A stretch of DNA of 64,000 bases from Burkholderiales bacterium (GTDB lineage: Bacteria; Pseudomonadota; Gammaproteobacteria; Burkholderiales; Burkholderiaceae_C): positions 21,993-85,992 of the forward strand of contig JAFLDE010000002.1 of NCBI GenBank assembly GCA_017302655.1. Direction: 5' to 3'. Of the stretch, positions 211 to 8,853 are shown in pieces (position 1 is the stretch's first letter; each line of letters starts with the position of its first letter). Made by a program: the position numbers and the translations under genes. The notes under the pieces are model-generated. The model was not told where the DNA came from and did not search any database. It saw only the letters and a list, made by a program, of their open reading frames with translations.

Positions 211-2103
211 TCAGGGTTGCGCGACCGCCTCGCCGAGGATCCAGGGTTCGTCGGGCCGGAGCACCGGCAAGGGCGCATAGGCCTTCGCCTGCACGATGCC
301 AAGCGCTTGCCGCCACTGTTCGGCGCGGCTGGGGCGCGGACCTTCAGCCAGCGCGTTCACGATCTGCCGCGCCGCCACTGGCGCTGCCACGCTCGTGCCA
401 CGCATGCGTACCCAGGTGCCGGACAACACGCCGGCGCCCAGGAGCCCCGGCGTCAGGACGGCTTCATCGGCCGCCGCAAGCAGGTGCACACCACCGGGCC
501 GCGGCACCTTGCCGTCGACGGGTGCGCTGTACCACGCGGCGCGCTGGTTCTCCAGGCTGCCGGCGCCCACCGAGATCGGGTAGCGGCCGGTGCACAGCAC
601 GTTATGCGCCCCTGCGGCCCCCAGGAACAGCCCACGGGCTTGTTCCAAGTAGGACTGCGACACCGGCACGTTGGGCAGCAAGCTGAAGTCGGGCTGATCG
701 CCTTGCACCATCACCCACAAGGGCACCGGTTCGTCGGATCGATTGCGACACGCGAGCGACCAGCATCCGCCGGGGATCTGGCGCCTGCGCGCTCCCGCCA
801 CGGGCGCCAGCGCCAGGCAAGCCCGCCCGCTGGCCAGCACGCTCAGGCGCGCCAGAGCCACGCCGTCTTGCTCCCAACCGATCTGGTATCCGGCACCCAC
901 CCAGGGGGACGGGGCACCTCCGGGCAAGGTGACGCGGAACTGGAGGTCTGGCCTGGACGCGACCGGCCACCAGGCCTCCAGAAAGCTATCCGTTGGATCC
1001 TCGGGCCGCAAACGCCAGCGCACACTGACTGGCTCGGCTTGCTTGCCGCCTGCAACGCTGCCGCTGGCAATCATCGGCTGCCGGCCGCGGTTCCCGGCCG
1101 CAATGAGCACGAGCAGGCCCGGATCCTTGGCCATCAGTTCGTCGATGGCCCGCACCAGCAGCAGGCTGCCGTCTCGAGGTCCGGCCTGCACGCCCAGGCT
1201 GATGTTCACGACCACCAAGGCCTTGGGCGCATGCCGACGCGCCACGCGTCGAATGTGGTGCAGGGCATCGAGCACTTGCAGTGCCGACGGAGCGCCGGTC
1301 GCCTGCCCGGGGAGCCCCCCCGGGACCGACACCAGCACCAGGGCTGCTCGGGAGGCCGCGTCGGCCAGCGCCGGCTTGGCCGCCCCGGGGAAGGCCGCCT
1401 TGAGCGGCAGCCCGGCCAAGGTGTCCAACACATGTGTGGCGTGATCGACCCCGCCTTGATCCGCGGTCCAAGCCCGGTCCGACATGTCGAGTTCGCCGAG
1501 GTACAGCGCGCGTTCCTGGCTTGCATCGCGCGCGCGCCCGCACAGGGCCTTCAGCGCGGCAGCGTCAAGCTCCCGGCCGTAGCCGGCCGGAGGGCGCTTC
1601 CATGGGCCTGAACGGGCGGCCTGCGTCTGGTCCCAGTAGCTGAGGAGGCGGGTCGGCGCATCGTCGGCGTCGCTTTCGCGAAACGCGCGGTTCAAGGGAG
1701 CGCCGCCGCTGTCGATCACCCCTACGACGACAGCTGGGGGCGGACCGCCGGACCCCACATCGGCCGACGGCGCTGCGACGGGCTGCGGCGCTTCCGCCAA
1801 GGGCTGCGAAAACTCGATGCGATCAACCAGAGCCGCCAACTCGGGCAAGGCAGAGAGCTGCGCCCAAACGGGCTCGACCGATAGATCGACGGGCCAATCG
1901 TCTTGCCAACGAATCGCCAGTTGGAGTTTCAACACTTGCTGGCGCAGGGTCGAGGCATCGCCTCGATGACGAATGAGCAAGGGCAACCAGGCAGTGGAAG
2001 CCTCCTGTGCGCCAAACACGCCGGCGAAGGCATCCGCCCGCGCCCAATCCATGTAGACGTCGTCTTCAAACGCGCGCGGCGCGCTCCAGCGCGAATCGAT
2101 CAC
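211..2103 (-). CDS. S8 (subtilisin-like) serine peptidase, no signal peptide
   Basis: Catalytic motifs VGVIDSGG (Asp), DHATHVLDTLAG (His), AAGN (oxyanion Asn), GTSVAAP (Ser). Start placed at GTG 2103 because it forms a GTGA overlap with the upstream stop at 2100-2102 (ORF track starts at 2193). Confidence 0.9.
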   Translation of the reverse strand: MIDSRWSAPRAFEDDVYMDWARADAFAGVFGAQEASTAWLPLLIRHRGDASTLRQQVLKLQLAIRWQDDWPVDLSVEPVWAQLSALPELAALVDRIEFSQPLAEAPQPVAAPSADVGSGGPPPAVVVGVIDSGGAPLNRAFRESDADDAPTRLLSYWDQTQAARSGPWKRPPAGYGRELDAAALKALCGRARDASQERALYLGELDMSDRAWTADQGGVDHATHVLDTLAGLPLKAAFPGAAKPALADAASRAALVLVSVPGGLPGQATGAPSALQVLDALHHIRRVARRHAPKALVVVNISLGVQAGPRDGSLLLVRAIDELMAKDPGLLVLIAAGNRGRQPMIASGSVAGGKQAEPVSVRWRLRPEDPTDSFLEAWWPVASRPDLQFRVTLPGGAPSPWVGAGYQIGWEQDGVALARLSVLASGRACLALAPVAGARRRQIPGGCWSLACRNRSDEPVPLWVMVQGDQPDFSLLPNVPVSQSYLEQARGLFLGAAGAHNVLCTGRYPISVGAGSLENQRAAWYSAPVDGKVPRPGGVHLLAAADEAVLTPGLLGAGVLSGTWVRMRGTSVAAPVAARQIVNALAEGPRPSRAEQWRQALGIVQAKAYAPLPVLRPDEPWILGEAVAQP

Positions 2104-3314
2104 CACTCTTCGCAGGCCAGTTGCCACAACAGGCGCCAGTCCTGGCTTGGGTCCACCGCGTGCGCGGAATCCAGGAATCCACACAACGGCCAAGCGCCGA
2201 TCTGATCGATGTCAGGCGCCTCAGCGTCCACCTGTTCCATCCAGGCCCCCAACTCGCTCGCGTCCTCCCCTGGCAAGCCAAAGCGTGCGCAGCAAGCCTG
2301 TGCATCCTTGTCATCACACAGCGTGCGCAAGTGGCGAAAGACAGCCTGCCCCAACAGGCGCCCGGCCATGGAGTCCACCGGGAAGTGAACCCCGGCGACC
2401 ACGCGGTTCTCTGCGATGCGCAGCGCCATCCGATCGAGCATCGCCGGCCGGGGGTCTCGCGTGAAGCGACGGCGCATCCAGTGCCCGATCAGGGCGGCCA
2501 CCAGATGGCTTTCCCCGGCATGTCCACTCGGCAGCGACGCATGCCCGGGGACCTCGACATGCGGCATCAGGTCCGGCCGCAAATGGTGCGGCCGCGCGCA
2601 GCCCAGCATGTGCTTCACACGCTGCTGCAGGGCCTGCTGAAAGGCCAGTGCAGCGGCAAGGAACTCCAGACTGCGCGGTCTGCGCTCCCAAGGCACGGCA
2701 GCCACGGCCAGCAGAAATGGCATGGCGGCCCCGGCCTGGGCAATGATCTCGCCTGACCGGGATTCGCGCAGCGGAAGCAAGGCATCCACCGCTTCGACTT
2801 GCCGCGCGAAAAAGGCCTCGGGGGGACGCTGCATCTCGACCCACGCCACCCAGGCACCAGCTGAAGGGGACCATCGCTCAACGAGTGCCCTGTCTGGTCC
2901 CTCTGCGGCAAGCACGCGCACGCCTGAAAGCGCATCAGCCAGCAGGCTTTGGGCGCGAGGGCTGCTGGCCCAGGTGCGCCAGGACTCGCCATCAAGCTTC
3001 GGGTGCCGCACGGGCTGCGCTTCGGTACCTGCTTCCGGCAGCAAAGCACCGCGCGCCGCAGCAAGCAGGTTGGCCATCGTGTCCAAGCTGGGCTCACCAG
3101 CGGTGCCTGCTGCCTGTGAGGCCTGTCCTTGACCGACCGGAGGGCCGCTGACCACGACCACGTTGGGCCATACACCCGCGTTGGGCCATACACCTGCGTT
3201 CGGCCACACACCCGCGTTGGGCCACACACCTGCGTTGGGCCACACACCCGCGTTGGGCCATACACCTGCGTTGGGCCATACACCCGCAAGAGGAAGCAAA
3301 GGATTGGGCGGCAT
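2100..3314 (-). CDS. PAP2 / vanadium-dependent haloperoxidase superfamily protein with N-terminal (AGVWPN)x7 repeat
   Basis: All three PAP2 motifs: K-HMLGCA-RP, PSGH, NR-VVAGV-H-FPV-D. ATG at 3314 follows GAAAGG RBS-like sequence (ORF track starts at TTG 3332). Confidence 0.85.
   Translation of the reverse strand: MPPNPLLPLAGVWPNAGVWPNAGVWPNAGVWPNAGVWPNAGVWPNAGVWPNVVVVSGPPVGQGQASQAAGTAGEPSLDTMANLLAAARGALLPEAGTEAQPVRHPKLDGESWRTWASSPRAQSLLADALSGVRVLAAEGPDRALVERWSPSAGAWVAWVEMQRPPEAFFARQVEAVDALLPLRESRSGEIIAQAGAAMPFLLAVAAVPWERRPRSLEFLAAALAFQQALQQRVKHMLGCARPHHLRPDLMPHVEVPGHASLPSGHAGESHLVAALIGHWMRRRFTRDPRPAMLDRMALRIAENRVVAGVHFPVDSMAGRLLGQAVFRHLRTLCDDKDAQACCARFGLPGEDASELGAWMEQVDAEAPDIDQIGAWPLCGFLDSAHAVDPSQDWRLLWQLACEEW
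3161..3286 (-). repeat. Seven tandem 18-bp coding repeats encoding A-G-V-W-P-N
   Basis: Plus-strand unit CGTT(G/C)GGCCA(T/C)ACACC(C/T)G repeated head to tail 7 times with no spacers. Confidence 0.97.
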
Positions 3315-3349
3315 GTCGATCGTGCCTTTCAAGGAAAAGGGAAAGCCTC

Positions 3350-5056
3350 TCAGCGCTCAGGAAGCCCTGCGGCGGTCAGCGCCCATGCGAAGTCCGTGGC
3401 ATGCGCCGTCTTCCGTCCGCCATAGGTATCCCAGAAGAGCTTGAGGTTGTACTGAGGCCAAAGCTCCCTGAGTTGCAGCAGGTGTTCGTGAGCCACATGC
3501 AAATTGCCGCTTCGCGCATGCGCGATCGTCAAATAGAAGAGGTTCGGTGCATGCCTTGCGCGCTGGCGCGCAGAGCGCTCTGCAAAGGCCAAGCCTTGAG
3601 GAATGTCGCCACGGGCCAAGTGCACGTGTGCCGCCACGGCATCAAAGAGGTAGCGCCAAGGGTCAAGCGGAGAGAGTGCCAACGCCACCTTGAGCGAGTC
3701 GTGAGCTTCGTCCAGTCGGTCATCAAACGTTGCCTGCAGCGCCGAGAACAGCCAAGCGAAGGCATCGCTCGGATTGGCATCCAGGGCGCGCGCGAGCGCC
3801 GCACGAGCCTCGCTTGGCGGATGCCCCTCCATGATGTGAAGGTAGCCCTGCAAGGCCATTGCCATGGCGCAATAGGGGTCAGCCTCCAAAGCGCGCTGGC
3901 AACAGATGACCGCCTCCGCAACCGCTTCGCGCCGTCGCTGCAAACCCTGCAGTGCAGCCATCACATGCCACTTGGCTGTCCACGCATGCACCAGCGCTTG
4001 GTTCGGTGCTCGCTCACGCAAGCCCTCGAGCAACAGCCGAGACCGCTCAAACGAAGCGGGCGAGAGTCGGTGCATGAGCTGGCTGGCACCGATGAGGAGT
4101 TGGTGATCCTCCAGGCTCTGCCAAGCAGGCAACTGAGCGACGCTTAGGGTCTCGCTCATCAGCGCAGCGTGAGCGTCCGCGATCGCGCGCATGAGACCGT
4201 CCGCGCTGCCGGCCAGGAGATCGTCGAGACGCACGCTGATGCGATCGCTCCAAAGCGCGCGTGACTGCCCCTTGGCCAGGACTTCCAGGTTCAGCAGCAG
4301 GGTGCCGCTGTCTCCAAGATGACCCTTGCCGAGCATCACATGGCTGGCGCCGAGCAGGGTGAAGGCGTCCTGCACGGCTCGTGCGGAGTCGGTCAGGCGC
4401 GACGTCGACTCACGCGCAACGACGCGCAAGAGGGCCGAGCGGGCCAGTGAACCGGTCAATGTGTCTGCAATGAGGTCGGCACAAGCTGCGGCGCGCGCGG
4501 GGTCATTGCCGCCGATCTGCGGGCGCAGCACCACCAGTACGTCGCGCAGCGCCACCGGGTCGGGCTGGCCGCTGGCCCCTTCCAAGGGCAGGGCCAGCAC
4601 CTTCAACGGGTCGCTGGCATCGTGACCGAGGTCCACCAGCGGGAGCTCCCAGGTTCGCGACAGGCGGTCGGCGAGGTCGGCACTCAGTCCCACCGCACCC
4701 AGCGGCGCGCGGCGGGCGGCCCGTTCGGCCGCTCGCAGCTCGCTGGCCTGAGGGTTTTCGGTGTCCCGCACCAGGTGCAGACCCATGTGCACAGGGGTGT
4801 GCACCTGCCAGCCCATGAGCAGGCGGCGGGCGACTGAGAGCAAGGCGTCGGCATCAGGCGCGCTCACGGCGGCCGGCAGGGCCTGACGCCAAGGTGCGTC
4901 CGGCAGGGCCTCCTTGAGAGCGTCGGCGATGCGACGCCACCGCTGCTCGATCTGCACAGGTGGCAGGTCATGCCCAAGCTCAGGACAGACCCAAAGCAAA
5001 GCGCCCGTCTGCACATCAGCAGACGTCAGCACGGACACATCGCTCGCCTCTGGCAT
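3350..5056 (-). CDS. Degenerate adenylate/guanylate-cyclase-like domain + TolB-like domain + TPR repeats (sensor/regulator)
   Basis: TolB-N-like block (ADLIADTLTGSLARSALLRVVARESTS...LWSDRI); TPR helices (ALEADPYCAMAMAL, ALDANPSDAFAWL, ALALSPLDPWRY); N-terminus resembles the end of a class III cyclase domain. Start ATG 5056 is uncertain (ORF open to 5242). Confidence 0.75.
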   Translation of the reverse strand: MPEASDVSVLTSADVQTGALLWVCPELGHDLPPVQIEQRWRRIADALKEALPDAPWRQALPAAVSAPDADALLSVARRLLMGWQVHTPVHMGLHLVRDTENPQASELRAAERAARRAPLGAVGLSADLADRLSRTWELPLVDLGHDASDPLKVLALPLEGASGQPDPVALRDVLVVLRPQIGGNDPARAAACADLIADTLTGSLARSALLRVVARESTSRLTDSARAVQDAFTLLGASHVMLGKGHLGDSGTLLLNLEVLAKGQSRALWSDRISVRLDDLLAGSADGLMRAIADAHAALMSETLSVAQLPAWQSLEDHQLLIGASQLMHRLSPASFERSRLLLEGLRERAPNQALVHAWTAKWHVMAALQGLQRRREAVAEAVICCQRALEADPYCAMAMALQGYLHIMEGHPPSEARAALARALDANPSDAFAWLFSALQATFDDRLDEAHDSLKVALALSPLDPWRYLFDAVAAHVHLARGDIPQGLAFAERSARQRARHAPNLFYLTIAHARSGNLHVAHEHLLQLRELWPQYNLKLFWDTYGGRKTAHATDFAWALTAAGLPER

Positions 5057-5365
5057 GCAGTGCCTCCCTGTTACGGCTCTTGCATTGTGAAGCGCAAGCC
5101 ATGTCGACGCTGTTGCATAGAAACCCCGTCTCCAAGGCCTTTTCTTCATGAGGATCGTGCGCTCCGGCGGGCGGCGTTGGCACGTTGCGACGCAGGTGCC
5201 GCCGTCGCCCCTCGCGACTGGGCGGCCGAGCGGATTCATCACAGGCCGAGTCCCGGTGAGCCTTCCGGCTGTCCCCCGTTTCGTTGGCTGGCTCGCTCTT
5301 GACCTTGGTGCTGCGTCAACGCAGGCCAGACTTCGGCGTTGCTGGCACCTCGGTCATCCCGACCG

Positions 5366-5596
5366 ATGGAGCCGACCTTGAGAATCCCTTTGCGCAGCTT
5401 GTCTGTCGTGCTGTTGGCCGTCGTCGGCCTGTCCGGTTGCATCATCATTCCGGCCCACCGACATCATGGCCCACCGCGTGGCGTCGTCGTCATCGAGAGC
5501 CCGCACGCGCACGGGCATGGCCACCGCGGCGGACGGCACCCCGGTCGGGGCGACGGAGGCTACGACCAGCGCGGCTTCGGTCCATACCGCCGCTGA
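5366..5596 (+). CDS. Small His/Gly-rich lipoprotein
   Basis: Signal peptide ending in lipobox LSG-C, then PAHRHHGPPRG...HAHGHGHRGG. Confidence 0.65.
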   Translation: MEPTLRIPLRSLSVVLLAVVGLSGCIIIPAHRHHGPPRGVVVIESPHAHGHGHRGGRHPGRGDGGYDQRGFGPYRR

Positions 5597-5599
5597 CGC

Positions 5600-6019
5600 T
5601 CAGCGGAAGGAGGCCAGCAGGATGTTGGTCTCGGTGTTGGCGATGCCCTTGATGAGCCGCACACGCTCTAGCACCTGGGACAGCTCGGCCATCGAGCCAG
5701 CGCGCAGTTCTGCCAGCAAGTCCCACCGGCCGTTGGTGTCGTGCAGCGCCATCACGGCGGGTTCGCCAAGCAAGGCGGCGGTCACGGCGCGGGTCTGGTT
5801 GCCCTCCACCAGCACGCCCATCCAGGCGCGGATCTGGTCGGGCTCGGCCTCGGGGCGCAAGCGCACCGTGTAGCCGACGATCATTTGCTCGTCCTCGAGC
5901 TTCTTCAGCCGATTCGTCACCGTGCCGCGGCTCACGCCGAGTTTGGCCGCGAGTTGCGCCACGCCAAGGCGGGCGTTGGCGCGCAGCAGGGCGATCAGCT
6001 TGTGGTCGAGGTCGTCCAT
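5600..6019 (-). CDS. Lrp/AsnC family transcriptional regulator
   Basis: MDDLDHKLIALLRANAR...LGVSRGTVTNRLKKLE HTH plus C-terminal RAM domain (TNGRWDLLAE). Confidence 0.95.
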   Translation of the reverse strand: MDDLDHKLIALLRANARLGVAQLAAKLGVSRGTVTNRLKKLEDEQMIVGYTVRLRPEAEPDQIRAWMGVLVEGNQTRAVTAALLGEPAVMALHDTNGRWDLLAELRAGSMAELSQVLERVRLIKGIANTETNILLASFR

Positions 6020-6537
6020 GCGTGCAATGCCTTGTGAAAAACACGGTTGCGATACGAGACGCCGTCGATTCGGTAATCCGTCTCACCAACGTCTTGGTAG
6101 CCCTGTCGCGCGTAGAAGGCCAGCGCGCGCCCATTCCCTTCCCAGGCACTGAGCCAGGAGCAGGCCGCGCCTTGCCCACGCGCCAAGTCCTCCGCGGCCT
6201 TCAGCAAGCGTGCGCCCAGGCCTTGGCACTGCCGTCTTGGGTGCACGTAGAGCCTGAACAACTCGGCACCCTGCAGCGCAGGTCCAGCGCTAGCGCTCGG
6301 CCCGGTCGCTTGCAGTGTGAGGTCGGCAAAGCCTTCCAGCCATCCTTCGGTCTCTGCCACCAGCACGCGCACCCCTGGGTCCTGCAGCCGTGCCGCCAGC
6401 ACCGGCACAGCGAAGCGCTGCTGCACCTCGCTGGCGATGGCGCGGTTCACCCCTTGCGGCACGTAGGTGTCGAGGAAGACATGGCTCGCCAGCAGGCTCA
6501 GCCGTTCTGCATCCAAGGGCGTGGCCAGTCGAATCAA
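5995..6537 (-). CDS. GNAT family N-acetyltransferase
   Basis: LFRLYVHPRRQCQGLGARLL motif A and N..ALAFYARQGY motif. TTG start at 6537 overlaps the upstream TGA (TTGA); 3' end overlaps the Lrp start by 25 nt. Confidence 0.85.
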   Translation of the reverse strand: MIRLATPLDAERLSLLASHVFLDTYVPQGVNRAIASEVQQRFAVPVLAARLQDPGVRVLVAETEGWLEGFADLTLQATGPSASAGPALQGAELFRLYVHPRRQCQGLGARLLKAAEDLARGQGAACSWLSAWEGNGRALAFYARQGYQDVGETDYRIDGVSYRNRVFHKALHAWTTSTTS

Positions 6538-7490
6538 CGGAAGCGCTCGATGTCGCGCGCCAGGTAGAACCATTCCTGCCCTGCCTGTGCCTTGCTGTTG
6601 GGAAAGACGATGCAGCCCGCCACGGGCGCATGCACCGCCTCGCCGCTGGCGCGATGGCCAATCAATTCCCCTTCCGCCACCCGGTCGAAACTGACCCAGG
6701 GCTTGACGAAGTCGTCGTCCACATGATGCTTGTCCTCCACATGGTGCAGGCGCAAGCCGGCCATGCTGTGCACTGCAGGCACGGCACCGTCGATCAAACC
6801 AAAGTGCGTCAGCGTGTTCACGATCGCCTGGTAGGCCACCTCGGGGGCCTCGGTGTCCTGGTGCTGGCCGCATTCCAGCGTCAGTGCCATGCCCCCGGTG
6901 CTGCGCATGTACTCGGTGCTCCCCACGCCGTACTGCTCATCCAGGTCGACGCTGCTGCCCACCTCCCGACCGGCGAAACGCGAACGGCGCTGCGCCACGC
7001 CACCTGCGTAGGTGTCCAGCCAGCCATCCACGCCACGCTGCACACCCAGCACCTTGGCCCAGGCCACCTCCTCGTCGGCCTGACGGACGGGCTGCAGCGG
7101 GCCATCGTTGTTCTCAGGACCCACCATCACGAAAGGCTTGCCGTTGGCCTGGAATGAATGCAAGTCGAGCAGGATCTCGTGCCGTGCCATCAGCGGACAC
7201 AGCCAGTTGGCCACGTGATCCTCGAACTCCTTGGGCTCGTTCGTCGGGCGCAGGCGGCGGTTCAGGTTGCGGTCGCCGTTGCGTTGTTGCTTCTGGTAAG
7301 CCAGCGGGTTGCAGATGGGCACAAACGTGACGCAGCCACGCAGCAAGCGGCGTTCGTCGCGCTCGAATTCGGCAATCAGGCGGCGAATGGCCTGCGTGCC
7401 GCAAACCTCATTGCCGTGCACGGCCCCGGTGACGAGCAGGCGCCGGCCCGGTTCGACGGCGCTGAATTGGGTGGCTTGGAAAGAGTGCAT
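6534..7490 (-). CDS. M14 metallocarboxypeptidase superfamily (succinylglutamate desuccinylase/aspartoacylase-like)
   Basis: GAVHGNE (HxxE), NLNRR, LLDLHS, LTLECG motifs; start ATG 7490. Confidence 0.85.
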   Translation of the reverse strand: MHSFQATQFSAVEPGRRLLVTGAVHGNEVCGTQAIRRLIAEFERDERRLLRGCVTFVPICNPLAYQKQQRNGDRNLNRRLRPTNEPKEFEDHVANWLCPLMARHEILLDLHSFQANGKPFVMVGPENNDGPLQPVRQADEEVAWAKVLGVQRGVDGWLDTYAGGVAQRRSRFAGREVGSSVDLDEQYGVGSTEYMRSTGGMALTLECGQHQDTEAPEVAYQAIVNTLTHFGLIDGAVPAVHSMAGLRLHHVEDKHHVDDDFVKPWVSFDRVAEGELIGHRASGEAVHAPVAGCIVFPNSKAQAGQEWFYLARDIERFR

Positions 7491-7605
7491 GGCCGCCAGT
7501 CTGCCATCTGGGTCCTGGCGATCCCAACCCCATTCGAGCCGGTTATGGGTCGCGCGAAGGCTGCTATGTCTCCGACCCCAGCCAGCCACGTAGCCTTCGC
7601 CCCCG

Positions 7606-8853
7606 ATGCAATCCAAGAATTTCGTCGTCATTGGCGCCGGTGTGGTGGGCCTGACCAGCGCCTGGGCACTGCTGGAGGCCGGCCACCGCGTGCGCATCGT
7701 CGAACGCGATGCGCCAGGCCAAGGTGCCAGCCATGCCAACGGCGGGCAGCTCAGCTATCGCTATGTGTCGCCCTTGGCCGACGCCGGTGTGCCCTTCAAG
7801 GCCATGCGCTGGCTGATGGACCCCGATGGCCCCTTGCGCTTTCGACTGGAAGCCGACCCGGCGCAGTGGAGTTGGCTCGCGCAGTTCCTGCTGAAGTGCC
7901 GCGCCTCGGTGAACCGCCGGGCCACCCAGCGCCTCCTGGCGCTCGGCAGCTTGAGCCAACAGACTTTCCAGGATTGGGCGGCGCAGCTGGACTGGAATGG
8001 ATCAGTGGCGCTGCGCGAACCCGGAAAGCTGGTGATCTACCGCCAGCCCGGCGAGTTCGCCAAGGTCCGTGCCCGCATGGCCGACACCGGTGTCGAGCAA
8101 GCGCTCGATGCGGACGCCTGCGTCGCGCTCGAGCCCGCCCTGACCCACGCCCGCGGCGTGCTGGCAGGCGGCATCTTCACGCCAGGCGAGGCCGTGGCCG
8201 ACTGCCACGCGCTGTGCCTGCACCTGCTTGGCAAGGTGCAAGCCCATCCCGGCTTTGATGGCCTCATTCAGCAAGCCGCCACCGGCTGGAACGTGGAGGC
8301 TGGGCGGCCGCAGTTGCGCACTTCGGGCGGCGAGTTGAAGGCCGACGCTTACCTGATCGCCGCCGGGCTGCACAGCCGGCCGCTGGCTGCGCCGCTGGGC
8401 ATCCGCCTGCCGCTCTACCCGCTCAAGGGCTACAGCCTCACGGCACCGATCCGCGAAGAACACCGCCCACCTGAAGTCAGCGTGACCGACTTCGAACGCA
8501 AGATCCTCTACGCGCGCATGGGCACCCGTCTTCGCGTGGCGGCCATGGCCGACCTCGTGGGCGAGAACCTCGATCTCGACCCGCATCGCCTGGCCTCGCT
8601 GCACCGCTCGGTGCGCGCCATGTTTCCCGATGCAGCTGACTACGACGCCGCCGAACCCTGGGCTGGCTTGCGCCCCGCCACACCCGGCGGCACGCCTATC
8701 CTGGGCGCGAGCCCTTTGCCTGGCGTGTGGCTGAACGTCGGCCACGGCGCACTCGGCTTTACCTTCTCCTTTGCCTCGGCGCGCATCGTGGCGAGTCTGA
8801 TGTCCGGCTTGCCCAGCCCCCTGGCGCTGGATGGCTTCACGCTCGGCACATGA
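7606..8853 (+). CDS. FAD-dependent D-amino acid dehydrogenase (DadA family; resembles the DguA D-glutamate dehydrogenase subgroup)
   Basis: VIGAGVVG dinucleotide motif, ANGGQLSYRYVSPLADAGVP, WAGLRPATP, NVGHGALGFT. Confidence 0.9.
   Translation: MQSKNFVVIGAGVVGLTSAWALLEAGHRVRIVERDAPGQGASHANGGQLSYRYVSPLADAGVPFKAMRWLMDPDGPLRFRLEADPAQWSWLAQFLLKCRASVNRRATQRLLALGSLSQQTFQDWAAQLDWNGSVALREPGKLVIYRQPGEFAKVRARMADTGVEQALDADACVALEPALTHARGVLAGGIFTPGEAVADCHALCLHLLGKVQAHPGFDGLIQQAATGWNVEAGRPQLRTSGGELKADAYLIAAGLHSRPLAAPLGIRLPLYPLKGYSLTAPIREEHRPPEVSVTDFERKILYARMGTRLRVAAMADLVGENLDLDPHRLASLHRSVRAMFPDAADYDAAEPWAGLRPATPGGTPILGASPLPGVWLNVGHGALGFTFSFASARIVASLMSGLPSPLALDGFTLGT

Follow-up and report, generated by a model that had tools for sequence, protein, structure and literature searches.

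Within a 64,000-nucleotide stretch of a Burkholderiales bacterium genome (GenBank assembly GCA_017302655.1, contig JAFLDE010000002.1, positions 21,993 to 85,992 of the forward strand; referred to here as the window), a gene encoding a protein of the PAP2 family carries, close to its 5′ end, seven consecutive copies of a unit specifying the hexapeptide AGVWPN. The copies differ from one another only at synonymous sites, which raises the question of whether the peptide itself is maintained by selection or is simply uniform through recent expansion of the repeat, and, in the former case, what purpose such a peptide might serve. Comparison of orthologous arrays at the codon level established that the peptide is under purifying selection at every residue within species, with the repeated word changing between species. 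Perfect peptide repeats with drifting codons represent rare direct evidence that a short peptide is itself the functional unit.

The AGVWPN array of the window

The long open reading frame (ORF) of the PAP2 gene extends from position 3314 to 2100 on the minus strand and specifies a 9-residue leader, a 42-residue array, a 25-residue linker, and the PAP2 domain. The array itself, defined by direct reading and by Tandem Repeats Finder, is located as follows:

3162..3287, minus strand: AGVWPN array, seven units of 18 nucleotides (nt), residues 10-51 of the PAP2 protein

In the frame of the ORF, the unit reads GCG/GCA GGT GTA/GTG TGG CCC/CCG AAC and occurs seven times, thus encoding (AGVWPN)x7; the corresponding Tandem Repeats Finder call covers 3161-3287, with a period of 18 and 7.1 copies. 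Variation is confined to unit columns 3 (G/A), 9 (A/G), and 15 (C/G), which hold the third bases of the Ala, Val, and Pro codons, and the same three sites alter residues in the other frames and on the opposite strand. An earlier note on this DNA had described both the synonymous-only variation in the PAP2 frame and the residue changes in the opposite-strand frame; both are evident in the translations, with the true array (3287..3162) lying one base off the coordinates given there.

Approximately 24% of random single-base changes in the AGVWPN unit are synonymous, and the three events observed correspond to a P value of ~0.014 for the window alone. The strict alternation of GCG and GCA along the array imposes a 36-nt period, which suggests recent growth via double-unit duplication. 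Because of this P value, and because the 36-nt period points to recent duplication, the window array constitutes weak evidence for selection when taken alone. The Val codon GTA, presumed to be rare at 68% G+C (codon usage was not tabulated), occurs four times among the seven units. The array's synonymous diversity may be favored in its own right, as it lowers DNA repeat identity and slippage.

Peptide conservation and codon drift in orthologous arrays

A search of 40 related genomes identified the gene in 5 of 10 genomes of the same genus (Inhella), one of which is that of Inhella crocodyli CCP-18. The arrays of the orthologs and of further related proteins are as follows:

Inhella metagenome-assembled genome (MAG), the closest relative (73% identical): (AGLWPN)x8
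Metagenome contig (67% identical): AGVWPN and AGVWPS units
Inhella G007: (ASLWPR)x5
Inhella G003 (I. crocodyli): (AGIGRT)x3-4
Inhella G006: (GSTVWP)x4-5
Inhella G001: (GGIGRT)x5
Inhella G002: (QAGLWG)x5
Paucibacter and metagenome proteins: (GGVGPx)x5, (AGVGPN)x3, and (LLHGIGPR)x3

Each ortholog of the Inhella clade possesses its own hexapeptide, which is exact across the internal copies and is encoded by DNA that has drifted. In (GGIGRT)x5, variation is present at all six third positions, and (ASLWPR)x5 exhibits seven variable columns, among them first positions of Leu (CTT/TTG) and Arg (AGG/CGC) codons that change synonymously. When events were counted as the minimum number of substitutions per column in internal copies only, the seven Inhella-clade arrays were found to have accumulated at least 46 substitutions, none of them non-synonymous (neutral P of ~1e-26). 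The peptide deviates only in terminal copies (SGIGRT, YSTVWP, and QAGATG), beyond which the sequences are unrelated. At least 460 further synonymous events were counted in exact-peptide runs of 78 arrays from more distant loci, runs which were chosen for exactness yet cover nearly the whole of these arrays; codon scrambling is exemplified by (GGA)x10, which is encoded by ten distinct DNA units. The proposal of the earlier note that selection acts on an exact peptide, and that slippage alone does not explain the array, is thus upheld by both event counts and applies family-wide. Whether orthologs carry repeats scrambled by non-synonymous changes, which by the note would have refuted the proposal, was also checked: the peptides differ among orthologs, but each array is internally perfect and none is scrambled.

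A neutral, functionless in-frame microsatellite, uniform through recent expansion by slippage, would be compatible with the presence of just three variable sites and a 36-nt periodicity in the window, with the five DNA-identical units of the closest relative, and with a copy number that ranges from 3 to 19 among relatives. Such an origin is contradicted by the strong divergence of synonymous sites in most arrays in the absence of any amino acid change, nearly all copies in many of them being distinct at the DNA level. Four of the seven Inhella-clade arrays show a raw within-array third-position difference of 0.5 to 0.6, against 0.24 for the array of the window, and the two closest species are separated by a synonymous divergence (dS) of 0.58; because a within-array difference of ~0.6 is comparable with this value, the identity of the copies does not derive from recent slippage. 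Orthology of individual units was considered for the arrays of I. crocodyli and Inhella sp., in which one pair differs only at a non-synonymous site; as we estimated the probability of a chance match at ~0.15, this comparison was not used.

A widespread three-gene module

The PAP2 gene is flanked on the same strand by two genes with which it forms a module:

3350..5056, minus strand: upstream gene, encoding a protein of 568 amino acids (aa) from MPEASD, with a degenerate class III cyclase-like domain at the N terminus, a middle domain, and TPR repeats at the C terminus; 35-nt gap to the PAP2 gene
211..2103, minus strand: downstream gene, encoding a Csp-like S8 subtilase (Pfam PF00082), whose GTG start overlaps the PAP2 stop codon (GTGA)

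The order TPR, PAP2, S8 is retained in all five same-genus orthologous loci and in Paucibacter. A scan of one genome per species returned 599 stretches matching the pattern, 544 of which encode a relative, and the best 80 of these 544 loci, distributed over Alpha- and Betaproteobacteria, Anaerolineae, and Myxococcota, were examined. Both neighbors are present in 76 of the 80, the remaining four being cut by contig ends, and gene order and strand are alike in all 76 with the exception of approximately eight loci of a Bradyrhizobium type, in which the upstream TPR match is encoded on the opposite strand. The module is, therefore, present in hundreds of genomes and does not represent a one-off. 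In Bradyrhizobium-type loci L052, L058, L065, L068, L071, L082, and L089, the repeats are of the SGE, SGD, SSD, SAG, or GGE kind and the opposite-strand TPR match is weaker (E ~1e-16); these loci look like a sub-type with another partner, possibly one of the winged helix-turn-helix (wHTH) type.

An N-terminal tandem array is present in the PAP2 ORF of 76 of the 80 loci. Most units are tripeptides of the form small-small-X, namely, GGV, GGF, GGL, GGA, GGY, SGL (19 copies), SGV (15 copies), NGY, TGW, NAY, NSF, GSF, SGM, NAH, AGI, LEG, SGD, and SGE, and GGS also occurs; hexapeptides distinguish the Inhella/Paucibacter clade. In many tripeptide arrays (among loci L026 to L101), a conserved Gly-Pro-Glu immediately precedes the repeat (as in MSGTGPE-GGVGGV and MGIGPE-SAYSAY), and the sequence SPL..ALI..RDGIVG follows it. 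These two elements could be caps or processing sites; GPE is missing in the Inhella clade, in which the counterpart of the SPL..ALI..RDGIVG part is a helix formed by residues 77-91. In a Polaromonas MAG (L034), a very long (LQG)n array with LQL, LQA, and TQG variants occupies a 531-aa frame and the S8 match is split over two ORFs; this copy may be decaying or mis-assembled.

Clustering of the flanking ORFs of the 80 loci identified only two recurrent kinds of gene, one for a Crp-like regulator (12 loci) and the other for a LuxR-like regulator (10 loci). In these loci (among L022 to L101), the Crp/Fnr-type gene lies near the cassette and the LuxR-type helix-turn-helix gene lies downstream on the opposite strand. 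These neighbors fit a cyclic-nucleotide output of the cyclase-bearing modules.

No description of this module was found in full-text literature searches, and the three-gene arrangement, widespread as it is, thus appears to be undescribed in the searchable literature. The nearest printed systems are the repeated-motif precursor TvgA of a peptide that is ribosomally synthesized and modified post-translationally (RiPP), which bears TVGG repeats (PMC9062424), an HxS-repeat antiphage effector (PMC13128918), and plant BURP-domain precursors (PMC11253845), none of which has the module's enzyme, its regulator, or its architecture. What the window adds is a clade that combines hexapeptides with a pseudo-cyclase, a clean test based on synonymous-only change, a second module in the same genome, and co-variation of the TPR protein with the repeat.

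The upstream TPR protein and its co-variation with the repeat unit

Among 65 members of the upstream protein family, a Guanylate_cyc domain was detected in 31, a Trans_reg_C domain (OmpR-type winged helix) in 15, and TPR families in up to 52. The TPR protein of the window yields only a weak TPR_2 Pfam match and no Guanylate_cyc match. The cyclase motifs D...GDG...VN, which comprise the Asp pair that binds metal and the Asn of the transition state, are present in 31 of the 65 members; alignment revealed that they are replaced throughout the Inhella clade, and the upstream proteins of Inhella and Paucibacter are, on the basis of their sequences, assigned as pseudo-cyclases.

Co-variation was assessed in 67 complete loci by comparing protein distances with differences between repeat units. 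In partial Mantel tests controlling for PAP2-domain distance, the TPR protein yielded r = 0.29 to 0.32 (p <= 0.0015) and the S8 protein r = -0.02 (p = 0.63). Seventeen disjoint close pairs of loci produced the same pattern: the ratio of the distance of the TPR C-terminal part to that of PAP2 was 0.49 where the two loci had the same unit and 0.99 where their units differed (p = 0.0015 in a one-sided Mann-Whitney test), and the corresponding S8/PAP2 ratios were 1.45 and 1.41 (p = 0.74). By these distance measures, divergence of the TPR protein tracks the repeat unit and that of the S8 protein does not.

The PAP2 enzyme and its translation start

The remaining features of the PAP2 gene are as follows:

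3325..3330, minus strand: Shine-Dalgarno-like GAAAGG, 10 nt 5′ of the ATG (GGAGG, AAGGAG, or GAAAGG at the equivalent place in orthologs)
3288..3314, minus strand: start codon ATG (3314..3312) and 9-residue leader MPPNPLLPL (5 to 12 leader residues between ATG and array in orthologs)
3087..3161, minus strand: linker between array and folded domain, residues 52-76 (VVVVSGPPVGQGQASQAAGTAGEPS...); AlphaFold2 pLDDT <50 for residues 1-73
2100..3086, minus strand: soluble PAP2-like domain, residues 77-404 plus stop codon, identified by Pfam PF01569, AlphaFold2, and Foldseek

Translation is likely to initiate at ATG 3314, yielding a product of 404 aa. This start is supported by the upstream GAAAGG sequence, by the presence in every ortholog of an ATG with a Shine-Dalgarno-like sequence 5 to 12 codons ahead of the array, by the family-invariant residues R120, G131, R133, V134, and W155, which precede the annotated start, and by the AlphaFold2 model, which folds from residue 77. 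The gene call of the source assembly (P0001) begins at residue 161, i.e., 160 codons late, and specifies 244 aa, thereby missing the array, the linker, and ~85 residues of the folded domain. The genes of the two closest relatives, P0002 and P0003, were likewise called short, and the contig of P0003 breaks within the repeat. In practical terms, gene callers shorten genes of this kind and lose the repeat.

The domain matches PF01569 with 52.8 bits against a cutoff of 27.2 (E value of 4e-14), and its catalytic motifs are intact: K234-x6-R241-P242, P262-S263-G264-H265, and R304-x5-H310-x3-D314. Across 75 homologs, K234, R241, P262, S263, G264, H265, R304, H310, and D314 are invariant and P242 is conserved in at least 90%; the Ser of the third motif is replaced by Asn303 in the window protein. 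AlphaFold2 predicted a confident fold from residue 77 onwards, with pLDDT >90 over residues 120-404, and a disordered tail comprising residues 1-73. The predicted fold is the helical bundle of PAP2 proteins, and its best Foldseek matches are class A acid phosphatases, namely, 7f17/7f18 (E value of 1e-6), 1d2t, and PhoN, with a probability of 1.0 and target-normalized TM scores of 0.6 to 0.67. Vanadium haloperoxidases matched more weakly (4usz, E value of 2.6e-3 and TM score of 0.32; 3w36 and 1vne, E values of 0.06 to 0.17; TM scores of 0.2 to 0.3). As the active-site motifs are common to the phosphatases and the haloperoxidases, sequence alone does not discriminate between them.

When the translations were judged by eye, no predictor having been run, an evident signal peptide was absent from all three module proteins; the PAP2 protein is probably cytoplasmic, as is the subtilase. 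Matches to NCBIfam were far below threshold, and the PADLOC library of anti-phage defense systems returned no significant match. A folded repeat or beta-helix was rejected for the array: the window protein has no Pfam match to the beta-helix hexapeptide repeat (PF00132), AlphaFold2 leaves residues 1-73 unstructured, and the units of relatives mostly have a period of 3, 4, or 8. In addition, residues 4-73 of PDB 5vj4 chain A, a solved "uncharacterized protein", which contain an N-terminal (E[SA]GVGP)n repeat, match the AGVWPN array with an E value of 7e-11. This protein was not accepted as a relative, as the match involves only a low-complexity stretch and the two are probably unrelated.

The Csp-like subtilase

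In the S8 protein, the catalytic triad D131, H221, and S571 and the oxyanion Asn, N338, are invariant across 69 homologs. No PDB match was obtained at the sequence level. The AlphaFold2 model (pLDDT of 86, pTM of 0.91) is most similar in Foldseek to the Csp proteases 4i0w (CspB; E value of 2.7e-20, target-normalized TM score of 0.67), 6mw4 (CspC), and 9pr9 (CspA), with E values from 1e-20 to 1e-15. The modeled protein thus conforms, by fold resemblance, to a Csp-like architecture with an N-terminal prodomain and an inserted beta domain, a resemblance which does not imply orthology. A tripeptidyl-peptidase activity, considered on account of repeat periods that are multiples of three residues, was discarded as a rule, as periods of 4, 5, 7, and 8 exist and the S8 protein resembles the Csp proteases in fold, not a tripeptidyl peptidase.

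A second module in the same genome

The genome of the window harbors a second module of the same design, whose three genes occupy the following positions:

Contig C201 (locus L102), 3005-4849, 4861-6069, and 6066-8039: cyclase-TPR, repeat-PAP2, and S8 genes

The tail of its PAP2 protein reads (QPHR)x5 (QPHL)x3 QPHR (QPHL)x3 QPHW QPHI, i.e., (QPHx)x14, and is encoded by scrambled codons. QPH is fixed and the fourth residue is R, L, W, or I, so that one position of a unit may vary freely. The upstream protein of this module has a Pfam Guanylate_cyc match and intact cyclase motifs. The occurrence of two unrelated words in a single cell fits the notion of orthogonal private codes.

A proposed role for the array

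The explanation which we consider best, and which we advance tentatively, is that the array is a lineage-specific peptide word that is read by the TPR domain of the partner protein and processed by the subtilase. The soluble PAP2 phosphatase would display identical AGVWPN copies on a selectively maintained, disordered N-terminal tail, and the word would most likely be the ligand of the TPR domain in the adjoining upstream regulator, to which we infer that it binds physically. This regulator is a pseudo-cyclase in Inhella; elsewhere it is either a class III cyclase in active form or a DNA-binding protein of the winged-helix type. The presence of several copies could permit multivalent binding, leading to clustering of the regulator or to its tethering to the phosphatase, and clustering could in turn act on the cyclase or wHTH domains, both of which function as dimers. 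The Csp-like subtilase probably performs a site-specific cut which could either detach the tail, as CspB does with the pro-region of pro-SleC, or release the words, and either event would switch the module. Because the S8 protein shows no co-variation with the word, conserved sequence beside the array is a more likely place for the cut than each unit. The position of the cut, the action of the phosphatase within the module, and the signal that is sensed are parts of this model that we infer.

Several observations weigh against this explanation. The TPR protein of the window lacks the cyclase catalytic residues, and single-chain AlphaFold2 modeling leaves the tail disordered. The independence of S8 divergence from the unit argues against recognition of each word by the subtilase. 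The co-variation tests, furthermore, are not fully corrected for phylogeny, and as the TPR gene abuts the array, linkage or joint transfer could yield a signal without any contact between the proteins. A simple linkage artifact is, however, disfavored because individual pairs show the effect as far away as the N-terminal part of the TPR protein.

A broader formulation, which we regard as possible but doubtful, is that Gram-negative bacteria possess a form of private peptide-code signaling, in which a species-specific word (AGVWPN for the module of the window, QPHx for the second module) is carried as a multivalent array by a phosphatase, the cognate TPR reader alone recognizes it and controls a cyclic-nucleotide or transcriptional output, a subtilase writes or erases the word, and orthogonal modules coexist without cross talk. 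Should the TPR domain indeed read the repeat, the module would represent a new class of bacterial signaling with programmable orthogonal peptide codes, and its members would offer synthetic biology a ready-made natural collection of TPR domains with their matching peptides.

Alternative explanations

The most serious rival, albeit one that we consider unlikely, is that the array is a polyprotein which the subtilase cuts into unit peptides (hexapeptides in the window, tripeptides in other lineages), these serving as diffusible TPR ligands in the manner of RRNPP systems and the PAP2 domain acting as a carrier. Identical copies under strong purifying selection, a TPR regulator that co-varies with the unit, and a dedicated protease within the operon would all be expected of such a system, and the last residue of many units is hydrophobic or aromatic and would suit the P1 position of a subtilisin substrate. 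It is difficult to reconcile with an S8 protein whose divergence does not follow the unit and whose fold resembles that of Csp-type proteases performing single-site processing, and GGA, GGS, and SGD would be poor specific ligands as free tripeptides. As regards export and re-import of the RRNPP type, no conserved exporter or Opp-like importer was found in the flanks of the 80 loci, and the PAP2 protein has no signal-peptide-like N terminus (as judged by eye; no predictor was run).

It is improbable that the tail is a structural or material element, in which repeats of period 3 or 6 would adopt a polyproline-II- or polyglycine-II-like, beta-helical, elastin-like, or sticker-spacer state and drive oligomerization or condensation. 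The small-small-hydrophobic composition and period of 3 of most units are in keeping with such a tail, as are its predicted disorder and the loose agreement of the Inhella units with the hexapeptide pattern [LIV]-G-x2-[STAV]-x in our own reading of the sequences. Gly- and aromatic-rich units such as GGF, GGY, and SAY also resemble low-complexity repeats of the FG or GGX type and were counted in its favor. Structural repeats, however, usually tolerate substitutions at exposed sites, whereas the positions observed here are fixed within species and free between species; SGD, SGE, and GGS contain no sticker residues, and neither a Pfam hexapeptide-repeat match nor an AlphaFold2 fold was obtained. 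Self-assembly, which the earlier note had listed as an alternative, leaves the exact-sequence constraint unexplained, and a structural tail of any kind leaves the co-variation of the TPR protein unexplained. Metal binding, also listed there, is not borne out, as the unit has no ligand residues.

That note had likened the repeat first of all to a multi-core RiPP precursor. In this scenario, which we consider very improbable, the array is fused to its own tailoring enzyme, a PAP2/haloperoxidase-like domain that modifies the cores (for instance, by halogenation or oxidation of Trp), and the subtilase frees the product. Identical cores N-terminal to an enzyme domain, with an adjoining protease whose S8 triad is intact, are necessary though insufficient for membership of this class; the core is hypervariable between species and the enzyme conserved, and short motifs are known to be repeated in RiPP precursors, as are the TVGG repeats of TvgA. 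No modifiable chemistry is common to the units, however: neither Trp nor Pro is conserved in orthologous units, Trp being missing in AGIGRT, GGIGRT, and GGVGPx, and the units of the family as a whole are mostly simple tripeptides, many of which (GGA, GGV, and AGI) are devoid of hydroxyl, aromatic, or sulfur residues. Halogenation, as raised in the note, and with it a vanadium haloperoxidase acting on Trp, was likewise judged unlikely, the fold being nearer to class A acid phosphatases (E value of 1e-6) than to haloperoxidases (3e-3 to 0.1). Moreover, a signaling protein heads the module, and no cluster of RiPP tailoring enzymes (of the radical SAM, YcaO, Lan, or P450 type) or transporters was identified among the clustered flanking ORFs of the 80 loci.

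The functionless microsatellite introduced above has a negligible chance of being correct in view of the neutral P value for the Inhella clade, arrays such as that with ten distinct units in ten copies, and the occurrence of arrays in 76 of 80 loci across phyla.

Comparison with known systems

The PAP2 protein shares its core and the motifs KX6RP, PSGH, and (S)RX5HX3D with the class A acid phosphatases of Pseudomonas aeruginosa (7f17), Escherichia blattae (1d2t), and Salmonella (PhoN). These enzymes are ~230 aa in length, periplasmic, and equipped with a signal peptide, whereas the window protein has no evident signal peptide and possesses additional beta elements (residues 132-162 and 341-382) and an N-terminal repeat tail.

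The clostridial Csp germination subtilases, the best structural matches of the S8 model, are intracellular proteases that keep their prodomain and contain a beta domain as an insertion. A single cut by CspB strips the N-terminal pro-region of pro-SleC and activates this hydrolase, an event analogous to the removal of the tail proposed here. Identity between the S8 protein and the Csp proteases amounts to only 13 to 16%, and the hosts of the module are non-spore-forming; the substrate proposed for the S8 protein is the repeat-tailed PAP2 phosphatase, in contrast to the cortex lytic enzyme that is cleaved by Csp.

Identical short units within one polypeptide, with hypervariable units and a conserved enzyme, are also characteristic of the burpitides of plants (formed from BURP-domain proteins), of the fungal borosins, and of TvgA, and in burpitides the enzyme domain acts on units that lie N-terminal to it, in a layout similar to that of the PAP2 protein. 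In contrast to these fused multi-core precursors, the module contains an enzyme with a PAP2 phosphatase fold, a class not known among RiPP tailoring enzymes, its operon is headed by a signaling regulator, and no conserved exporter is encoded nearby.

The C-terminal domain (CTD) of RNA polymerase II, with its YSPTSPS heptads, provides an analogy, and only that, for a disordered tandem array which is carried by an enzyme and serves as a multivalent code for partners. The CTD is a eukaryotic element at the C terminus, phosphorylation regulates it, and its unit is conserved across species; the unit of the module is, unlike that of the CTD, species-specific.

The RRNPP systems of Firmicutes (Rap-Phr, NprR-NprX, PlcR-PapR, and PrgX) combine a cytoplasmic TPR regulator, an adjacently encoded lineage-specific oligopeptide, and a maturing protease; the module described here contains possible counterparts of all three, and its specificity, like theirs, may diverge between close relatives. 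The module differs from them in that its peptide is repeated 3 to 19 times and fused to a PAP2 enzyme, in that its hosts are mainly Proteobacteria, and in that its output domain would be either a (pseudo)cyclase of class III or a wHTH of the OmpR type, the likeness between the regulators being known from their TPR repeats alone.

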